From Escherichia coli (GTDB lineage Bacteria > Pseudomonadota > Gammaproteobacteria > Enterobacterales > Enterobacteriaceae): a DNA stretch of 64,000 nt. Location: NCBI RefSeq assembly GCF_044324785.1, contig NZ_CP172127.1, one strand, 5' to 3'. Made by a program: the position numbers and the translations under genes. This document shows positions 50,046-53,497 of this stretch, one piece after another. How positions within the stretch are numbered: position 1 is the first letter of the stretch; the number at the start of each line of letters is the position of its first letter. Below the pieces are notes generated by a model. It had not been told where the DNA came from. It searched no databases and saw nothing but the letters and a program-made list of their open reading frames with translations.

Positions 50046-51233
<1,188 letters not shown>

Positions 51234-51242
51234 TCAGCAAAA

Positions 51243-51270
51243 CCCCGGCCATGTGCCGGGGTTTCTTTTT
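51243..51270. terminator. bidirectional terminator between obgE and dacB
   Basis: ccccggc-catgt-gccgggg stem-loop followed by tttcttttt; dacB stop immediately adjacent on the other strand. Confidence 0.8.
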
Positions 51271-51272
51271 GA

Positions 51273-52706
51273 CTAATTGTTCTGATAAATATCTTTATAC
51301 AAACGGCTTTCAAAACGCACTAACGGAATACGGCGATTACGCTGATCCGCCGGTTCTACTGCATAGCCAGAAAGATATTGCACAAACGCCATTCGTTGCC
51401 CGCTCGCTGTGGTAATGAATCCCGCCAGGTTATATACCCCCTGCAACGAACCGGTTTTCGCTGAGACTTTTCCATCCACGCCCGCCTGATGCAGACCTGC
51501 ACGGTACTGCAAAGAGCCGTCATAGCCCGCCAGCGGCAGCATGGAGATAAAGTTAAGTTCATTGTCGTGTTGGGCAATGTATTGCAGCACCTGCATCATG
51601 GTGGCGGGGGCAATCAGGTTATGCCGCGAAAGCCCTGAACCATCGGCAATAATGGTATTTCCAATATCGACACCGGCTTGCTGGCGCAGGATCTGACGCA
51701 CGGCGTCCGACCCGGCCCGCCATGTTCCAGGCACATTGAAGCGCGCATGGCCTATCATGCGGAAAACCGTATCGGCGATCATGTTGTCTGACTTTTTCAG
51801 CATAATCTTAAGCAGATCGTGCAGCGGGGCCGACTGTTTACTGGCAACTACCGTTCCAGGTTCGTTAACCTGAGTCTGGCGCAGCAGTGTTCCACTCCAG
51901 GTGATACCCGCCTGTTTTAACTCATCTTTCAGAATTGCACCGGCATAGCTGGCTCCATCCTGCACGGCAAAAGCCAACGGGAGCGGCTCAGAACGTTGTG
52001 GCAGGCATCCGGTCAGCGTAAAGCGGTTCAGGTCGCCTGGCACCACATCCAGCTCGCAATATTGCGCTTCGGCAGACCCACGGGGGAGGGTGCGTACCTG
52101 GCTGAACATCGTAACGGGGTAATAAGATGCCACGCGTATAAAAGCCATATCACCAGGTTTTTGGGCACTGTAGAGCGAGACGGAGAAACAGTTGCGGTCA
52201 ACTATGGCGGCGGCAGGCGGAGCGCTAAAGCATTGTGTCATGTCATTCCATGGCCAGCCGGGGGCTTTATCGTGGCTGGCGAAAATGGAGGTATCTATCA
52301 ACACATTGCCATCGATTTGGTTGACGCCAGATTTTTTCAAAGTCGCGACCATATTGCGAATATCCTGACGTTTTAACGTCGGATCGGCACCAAATCGCGC
52401 CACTAAGTCACCCTTAAGTACGCCGTTTTCCACATTGCCTTTGGTTTCAAGCGTCGTGGTAAAACGAAAATCGGGGCCGAGTTGAATCAACGCCGCCAGC
52501 GCAGTAATCACTTTCTGGGTACTGGCGGGCAGCGCCATCTGCTGACTGTGGTAATCAATAGCGGGGGCCGACGCGCCGACTTTTTGCACCATCAGGGCAA
52601 GGTTGGCACCAGCGGGGAGTTGAGTAATGTACTCATCAACATTTGCGGCCTGAACACTGAACGCTATACAGCTGGTCAATCCGATGATAAATCTGGAAAA
52701 TCGCAT
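51273..52706 (-). CDS. dacB: D-alanyl-D-alanine carboxypeptidase/endopeptidase PBP4
   Basis: 477-aa ORF with signal peptide and SxxK motif (STQK). Confidence 0.96.
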   Translation of the reverse strand: MRFSRFIIGLTSCIAFSVQAANVDEYITQLPAGANLALMVQKVGASAPAIDYHSQQMALPASTQKVITALAALIQLGPDFRFTTTLETKGNVENGVLKGDLVARFGADPTLKRQDIRNMVATLKKSGVNQIDGNVLIDTSIFASHDKAPGWPWNDMTQCFSAPPAAAIVDRNCFSVSLYSAQKPGDMAFIRVASYYPVTMFSQVRTLPRGSAEAQYCELDVVPGDLNRFTLTGCLPQRSEPLPLAFAVQDGASYAGAILKDELKQAGITWSGTLLRQTQVNEPGTVVASKQSAPLHDLLKIMLKKSDNMIADTVFRMIGHARFNVPGTWRAGSDAVRQILRQQAGVDIGNTIIADGSGLSRHNLIAPATMMQVLQYIAQHDNELNFISMLPLAGYDGSLQYRAGLHQAGVDGKVSAKTGSLQGVYNLAGFITTASGQRMAFVQYLSGYAVEPADQRNRRIPLVRFESRLYKDIYQNN

Positions 52707-52825
52707 AATCTCGCGCTAACAACCTGGAATCGAGCCGTCATACTACGGCGCAACGCCCTATAAAGTAAACGATGACCCTTCGGGAACTTCAGGGTAAAAT
52801 GACTATCAAAATGTGAATTGTAGCT

Positions 52826-52860
52826 GACCTGGGACTTGTACCCGGGTCGGTATTTTTTTG
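52826..52860 (+). terminator. intrinsic terminator inside greA leader (3' end of GraL leader sRNA)
   Basis: gacctggg-acttgta-cccgggtc stem-loop followed by ggtattttttt, about 95 nt upstream of greA ATG on the greA strand. Confidence 0.65.
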
Positions 52861-52953
52861 CTTCTGGTCCCGGTGAGGAGTTATGCCGGGCAGGCCGAAC
52901 AGCCGGGGTGGGTGAAGACTTGCCCCATCAGGAATATTCAAGAGGTATAACAA

Positions 52954-53430
<477 letters not shown>

Positions 53431-53474: not shown

Positions 53475-53497
53475 AAAAGGCCGCTATGCGGCCTTTT
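53475..53497. terminator. bidirectional terminator between greA and yhbY
   Basis: aaaaggccg-ctatg-cggcctttt, perfect 9-bp stem with A/T tracts. Confidence 0.8.

Follow-up and report, generated by a model that had tools for sequence, protein, structure and literature searches.

GreA acts globally on transcription, as a fidelity and anti-backtracking factor, and its level must stay within bounds. The DNA analysed here is a stretch of 64,000 nucleotides (the window; positions are counted from its first letter) in which greA is transcribed divergently from dacB, and a preliminary description of it, made from the letters alone, placed an intrinsic terminator on the greA strand inside the 5' leader of greA itself. 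The locus raises three questions: whether the hairpin is an intrinsic terminator, whether it is the one that generates the small RNA GraL, and what a terminator in this position means for the expression of the gene behind it.

The dacB-greA locus

The window is E. coli chromosome, and the gene order is obgE (+), dacB (-) and greA (+), followed by yhbY, rlmE and ftsH. The genes closest to the site are:

50061-51233, + strand: obgE (open reading frame list and annotation)
51273-52706, - strand: dacB, divergent from greA (open reading frame list and MG1655 annotation)
52954-53430, + strand: greA coding sequence, 158 amino acids (open reading frame list; 5425 E. coli genomes and MG1655 carry the annotation greA here)

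The intergenic region between dacB and greA occupies 52707-52953 (247 bp). The preliminary description gave this span for its terminator; the terminator does lie within it, but the span equals the whole of the intergenic region and not the terminator itself.

With 501 bp around the site as the query, 5425 of 5426 complete E. coli genomes gave a match, always at greA and dacB, and in 5414 of the 5425 matching genomes the identity is at least 99%. Sequence comparison shows 100% identity to MG1655 from the promoters to the end of the terminator; the intergenic region differs from that of MG1655 only at 52875 (G for A) and 52926 (C for T), and both positions are downstream of the terminator, in the read-through leader. 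The RefSeq annotation of MG1655 has no graL feature at this locus, where it lists protein-coding genes only.

Hairpins are also present at the gene borders nearby. Between greA and yhbY, which are convergent, there is a perfect 10-bp palindrome (53475-53497; AAAAGGCCGC-TAT-GCGGCCTTTT) bordered by runs of A and of T, with weak sub-threshold matches to RF02082 on both strands; it is likely to be a bidirectional terminator. On the - strand, positions 51231-51312 gave a sub-threshold match to the Pseudomonas rnk leader (25.1 bits, versus 55), which is driven solely by a GC-rich hairpin in the gap where obgE and dacB converge (AACCCCGGCC...GGCCGGGGTT). The same hairpin was found at 51241-51263 in the strict terminator scan of the window described below, and an rnk leader at 51231-51312 was rejected in favour of an ordinary 3' terminator between obgE and dacB.

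An intrinsic terminator within the leader of greA

Two adjoining elements make up the site on the greA strand:

52823-52851, + strand: GraL intrinsic terminator hairpin (sequence, consensus scan, folding, covariation and the RF01769 helix)
52852-52863, + strand: AU7GCUU tract, the zone of imprecise termination with the GraL 3' ends (sequence and published GraL lengths)

The hairpin reads GCTGACCTGGG-ACTTGTA-CCCGGGTCGGT, with a stem of 11 pairs (52823-52833 with 52841-52851; seven G-C, one A-T and three G-T) and a 7-nt loop. The stem is followed by A52852, a T7 run at 52853-52859 that starts 1 nt after the stem, and GCTT at 52860-52863. From the last T of the run (52859) to the A of the greA ATG (52954) the distance is 95 nt, so the GC-rich hairpin with a T7 run that had been described about 95 nt upstream of the start codon is correctly placed. 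A consensus scan independently picks the same hairpin and T-run. The hairpin alone folds at -18.6 kcal/mol; the RNA beginning at the P1 start folds at -21.4 kcal/mol (z = -4.17), with none of 200 shuffles as stable, and that beginning at the P2 start at -19.6 kcal/mol (z = -4.10). The arrangement—a stable, GC-rich hairpin with a U-tract directly after it—is that of an intrinsic terminator.

Loose terminator-like matches are common (7 found in 2.5 kb, against 2.9 expected), a point in favour of a hairpin that arose by chance or that terminates a neighbouring gene at its 3' end. A strict scan of the 64-kb window, set to accept no fewer than 9 uninterrupted pairs, 5 G-C pairs and 6 T in 8, recovered 8 distinct sites (16 nested matches) versus approximately 0.4 matches per dinucleotide shuffle, an excess of about 40-fold that argues against chance. 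All of the other strict sites are at gene 3' ends, and the greA-leader site is the only one in the window that lies 5' of a gene between divergent genes. As dacB is divergent, there is no co-directional gene upstream that the hairpin could terminate at its 3' end, and that candidate was rejected. The stem also covaries (see below), and experimental proof has been published for the identical sequence (PMC2836576), which leaves an accidental or borrowed hairpin with practically no probability. We are highly confident that in E. coli the hairpin and T-run constitute the greA leader's intrinsic (Rho-independent) terminator, releasing GraL.

Promoters and transcription start

E. coli greA is reported to have two strong overlapping promoters, P1 (sigma70) and P2 (sigmaE), with P2 located 11 bp downstream (PMC2836576). 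The corresponding features of the window are:

52772-52800, + strand: greA P1 sigma70 promoter, with predicted -35 ATGACC (52772-52777), 17-bp spacer and -10 TAAAAT (52795-52800) (consensus scan)
52783-52810, + strand: greA P2 sigmaE promoter, GGAACTT-N16-TCAAA, with its start at A52816 or A52817 (pattern search and conservation)
52805-52822, + strand: +1 to +18 of GraL/greA mRNA from P1, an unstructured, A-rich segment (published AUG at +150; folding)

The greA AUG is at +150 relative to P1 (PMC6829880), and since the ATG is at 52954, the P1 +1 must be A52805 and the stem must start at +19, position 52823; A52805 as the +1 also fits the ApU primer of the published in vitro work. The dacB AUG has been placed at -98 from P1 (PMC6829880) versus -99 here (A52706, with +1 at 52805), a one-base difference in numbering that is inconsequential. 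ATGACC and TAAAAT, which match the consensus at 9 of 12 positions in the scan, are the probable P1 hexamers, and their positions fit a +1 of 52805 as derived from the AUG at +150; across 23 Enterobacterales TAAAAT hardly varies. The P2 element GGAACTT-N16-TCAAA is a perfect sigmaE consensus, unique in the window and with no matches in 100 shuffles, and about 19 Enterobacterales loci, across genera, keep the pattern in the corresponding place. At the sequence level, both of the overlapping promoters are present.

Correspondence with published GraL

In MG1655 the terminator consists of an 11-bp stem and then (U)AU7GCU2, and GraL is found in vitro and in vivo as chains of 50-60 nt and 40-50 nt (PMC2836576); the length from P1 has been given as 49-59 nt (PMC6829880). 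Overall, the short chains published as released from this sequence in vivo and in vitro measure 37-59 nt. Counted from 52805, chains of 49-59 nt have their 3' ends at 52853-52863, which is the U7GCUU tract, and the published 3' ends, which spread over approximately 10 nt, are placed within UAU7GCU2 to +/-2 nt (PMC2836576). The preliminary description had expected a short transcript ending at 52860; that position is within 52853-52863, but termination is imprecise over about 10 nt and does not occur at a single site.

The proposed match to the GraL leader is sustained, as the sequence is identical to that of MG1655 and the published anatomy is the same (PMC2836576, PMC6829880); likewise, in the comparison with published GraL coordinates that had been suggested, the AUG at +150, the GraL length of 49-59 nt and the +1 to +18 segment all map exactly onto the window. 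The promoters, the 11-bp stem, the UAU7GCU2 tract and the position relative to greA and dacB are all identical to those of the K-12 GraL/greA leader, from which the window differs by two bases only, downstream of the terminator; this is the same element in another strain. The greA leader terminator is thus a known and published element, with nothing new about the terminator itself, and what this analysis adds by its own means is the presence of the terminator here, its identity to MG1655, its stability, and the evolutionary support for its stem.

Conservation of the leader and the structure of RF01769

The Rfam family RF01769 (Enterobacteria greA leader) matches 52737-52858 over its full length (model positions 1-124 of 124), and scores 127.5 bits, where the gathering score is 60 (E = 3.9e-24). 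For comparison, 80 greA loci were fetched from other gammaproteobacteria, and RF01769 precedes greA in 22 other Enterobacterales genera, all with the same dacB/greA synteny. These 22 loci were aligned together with the window, and the resulting 23 sequences were scored against the Rfam structure. Compensatory changes, affecting both sides of a pair, are present at 10 of the 11 pairs of the terminator helix, with 86.9% of cells paired, and the covariation of this helix exceeds that of all 500 shuffles and of every slid control. When folded individually, the window and 21 of the 22 other loci form a hairpin with a T-run 81-132 nt before the ATG; the remaining locus, L018, yielded none at the thresholds used.

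RF01769 also models four helices upstream of the terminator, at 52737-52807. The source of the family (Naville & Gautheret 2010) defined leaders from the upstream gene boundary, without transcription start site data, and stated that a clear antiterminator can be drawn for the greA leader. Both the modelled helices and the reported antiterminator speak for a classical attenuator or riboswitch, in which the upstream helices would serve as antiterminator or sensor in competition with the terminator, as Naville & Gautheret (2010) proposed. However, model positions 1-68 correspond to 52737-52804, which precede the P1 +1 (52805), so this segment is absent from the P1 and P2 transcripts. None of the 15 upstream pairs has a compensatory change in the 23 Enterobacterales, as against 10 of 11 in the terminator, and the variation that is present breaks them; for instance, one pair is left open in 10 of 23 sequences and another in 13 of 23. 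The upstream helices were rejected as RNA structure on account of this absence of covariation support in the 23 Enterobacterales. The blocks that are invariant in the alignment coincide with promoter elements: AAAGTAAACGATGA (the -35 and the proximal upstream sequence), GAACT (sigmaE -35), TAAAAT (sigma70 -10), and TCAAA (sigmaE -10).

An antiterminator within the transcript was also rejected, as only 18 nt precede the stem and folding of +1 to +36 gave no structure; these nascent 36 nt, made ahead of the 3' arm, reach only -0.2 kcal/mol, and every one of 200 shuffles folds more stably. With no competing structure in the transcript, the leader is not an attenuator of the alternative-structure type, and previous authors have likewise argued against its being an attenuator or a riboswitch (PMC6829880). 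An attenuator or sensor built from the upstream helices is, in our estimate, very unlikely. The greA leader here is a full-length match to RF01769, whereas the model reaches 68 nt upstream of the mapped start, and we conclude from the alignment that only the terminator helix of the family is likely to behave as RNA structure.

A putative dacB promoter

Two of the invariant blocks in the alignment, CATACTAC at 52740-52747 and AAAGTAAACGATGA at 52762-52775, can also be read on the opposite strand. The minus strand of the CATACTAC block contains TAGTAT, the complement of 52742-52747, with TTTACT, in the AAAGTAAACGATGA block, 18 bp upstream, and in all genera CATACTAC keeps a constant distance to the dacB ATG, of about 31 nt. 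It is plausible that TTTACT (-35) and TAGTAT (-10) constitute the dacB promoter, which would be interleaved with the greA P1 -35 and its upstream region. Interleaving of the dacB and greA promoters would possibly couple the two genes.

Termination, GraL and autoregulation by GreA

Termination at this site is approximately 66% in vivo and 60% in vitro, with release from RNA polymerase, and its efficiency is constant throughout growth (PMC2836576); this constancy indicates a set-point or feedback device and not a condition-responsive switch. Deletion of greA derepresses a leader-lacZ fusion about 3-fold, and the autorepression requires catalytically active GreA (D41) (PMC6829880). It is independent of the promoter and depends on GraL sequence in cis, comprising both +1 to +18 and the hairpin arms, and it is weakened when +1 to +18 are scrambled (PMC6829880). 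The GreA level correlates positively with GraL and negatively with read-through, and Nus factors, sigmaE and Hfq are all dispensable for the autoregulation (PMC6829880). GraL supplied in trans has no effect on greA fusions, and it has other targets, of which nudE is a proposed one (PMC6829880). The implication drawn in the preliminary description, that read-through controls greA expression, agrees with these published results: about 66% of the transcripts end early, GreA shifts the balance from read-through towards GraL, and GraL is needed in cis.

GreA is without effect on termination in a purified in vitro system (PMC2836576, PMC6829880), and a cofactor or an indirect route is therefore assumed. 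As to how GreA raises termination, the assumption is that GreA enhances it together with an additional factor.

Placed on the window, the course of events would be as follows. Transcripts from P1 (+1 at 52805) and P2 (about 52816) would reach the terminator after 18 or 7 nt, and the hairpin at 52823-52851, with AU7GCUU, would release about two thirds of them as GraL; the remaining third would pass through the 90-nt downstream leader to give greA mRNA. GreA competent for RNA cleavage would raise termination and so repress its own gene, with GraL needed in cis, and GraL may additionally act in trans, with nudE as its proposed target.

The element could also be viewed as mainly an sRNA gene, that of GraL, residing in the greA 5' UTR, the effect of read-through on greA being a by-product. 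GraL overexpression alters more than 100 genes and improves fitness, with nudE proposed among the targets (PMC2836576, PMC6829880), the authors themselves ask why a terminator follows two strong promoters (PMC2836576), and the +1 to +18 segment upstream of the stem is conserved across genera. Part of that conserved segment overlaps the sigmaE -10, however, so its conservation need not mean an sRNA seed, and Hfq is dispensable for the autoregulation (PMC6829880). Moreover, an sRNA gene leaves the role in cis standing, as autorepression depends on GraL in cis while GraL in trans is inert on greA fusions. We regard a primarily sRNA-encoding element as less likely than not.

A published analogy is with dual-function leader RNAs such as the Listeria SreA riboswitch, which also gives a prematurely terminated 5' UTR transcript with action in cis and in trans (PMC6829880). 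It differs in that the GraL leader is without a ligand-binding aptamer or an alternative structure, and in that the effector of GraL (GreA and a further factor) would increase termination instead of relieving it.

The read-through leader and a CAGGA motif

Transcripts that pass the terminator enter the remaining part of the leader, which contains:

52864-52953, + strand: the part of the greA 5' UTR that is reached by read-through, which is GC-rich and shows little conservation (sequence and alignment)
52929-52933, + strand: CAGGA motif, some 25 nt ahead of the ATG of greA, conserved in most Enterobacterales
52940-52945, + strand: ribosome-binding site AAGAGG, a conserved part of the read-through leader

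This 90-nt segment has no unusual fold (z = -0.96) and gave no evidence of a conserved one. Genera outside the E. coli group have a second, TCAGGATGA-like motif at approximately -43 to -56 from the greA ATG (loci L010, L012, L016-L021, L023, L024 and L034). Both motifs resemble the CsrB repeat, or CsrA binding site, CAGGA(U/A/C)G; the frequency of CAGGA in the window is about 1 per kb, and among the papers listed by a full-text literature search with greA as a whole word no link between CsrA and greA was found. The CAGGA and TCAGGATGA motifs could represent a candidate CsrA site, and CsrA a candidate for the additional factor in greA control. Taken as one proposal—that the 5' two thirds of RF01769 are conserved divergent dacB/greA promoter DNA and that CAGGA is a CsrA site and points to a candidate greA factor—this is speculative, and we consider it unlikely to hold in full.

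greA leaders beyond the Enterobacterales

The divergent arrangement of dacB and greA is kept in Enterobacterales and in Pasteurellaceae, and in the latter the greA leader carries RF02904, AaHKsRNA69 (Aggregatibacter sRNA 69), on the greA strand. Matches to RF02904 were found in the following loci, numbered so that the greA ATG is at 1501:

L026, 1335-1416: RF02904
L029, 1331-1412: RF02904
L031, 1337-1419: RF02904
L033, 1344-1426: RF02904

These leaders resemble that of GraL in being on the same strand, directly upstream of greA and between divergent dacB and greA genes, and in ending in a hairpin with a T-run. They differ in that the sequence is unrelated and has no RF01769 match, and in that the terminator is 22-35 nt from the ATG rather than about 100 nt as in Enterobacterales. 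Judging by position and architecture, RF02904 appears to be a sequence-unrelated functional counterpart of GraL.

Similar hairpins are seen in Aeromonas and in some Shewanella greA loci. Together with those of the Pasteurellaceae, they agree with the published view that greA/rnk genes are frequently preceded by terminators (Naville & Gautheret 2010).

Significance

The leader terminator of greA is a published device that sets the level of GreA and produces the GraL sRNA. That it was found again from raw sequence illustrates that real regulatory anatomy is recognisable in this way, and it brings no new biology with it. The additions made here are modest ones: a point of curation for RF01769, the upstream helices of which are probably promoter DNA, and two leads, the counterpart of the GraL leader that appears to be present in Pasteurellaceae and a possible CsrA motif ahead of greA.
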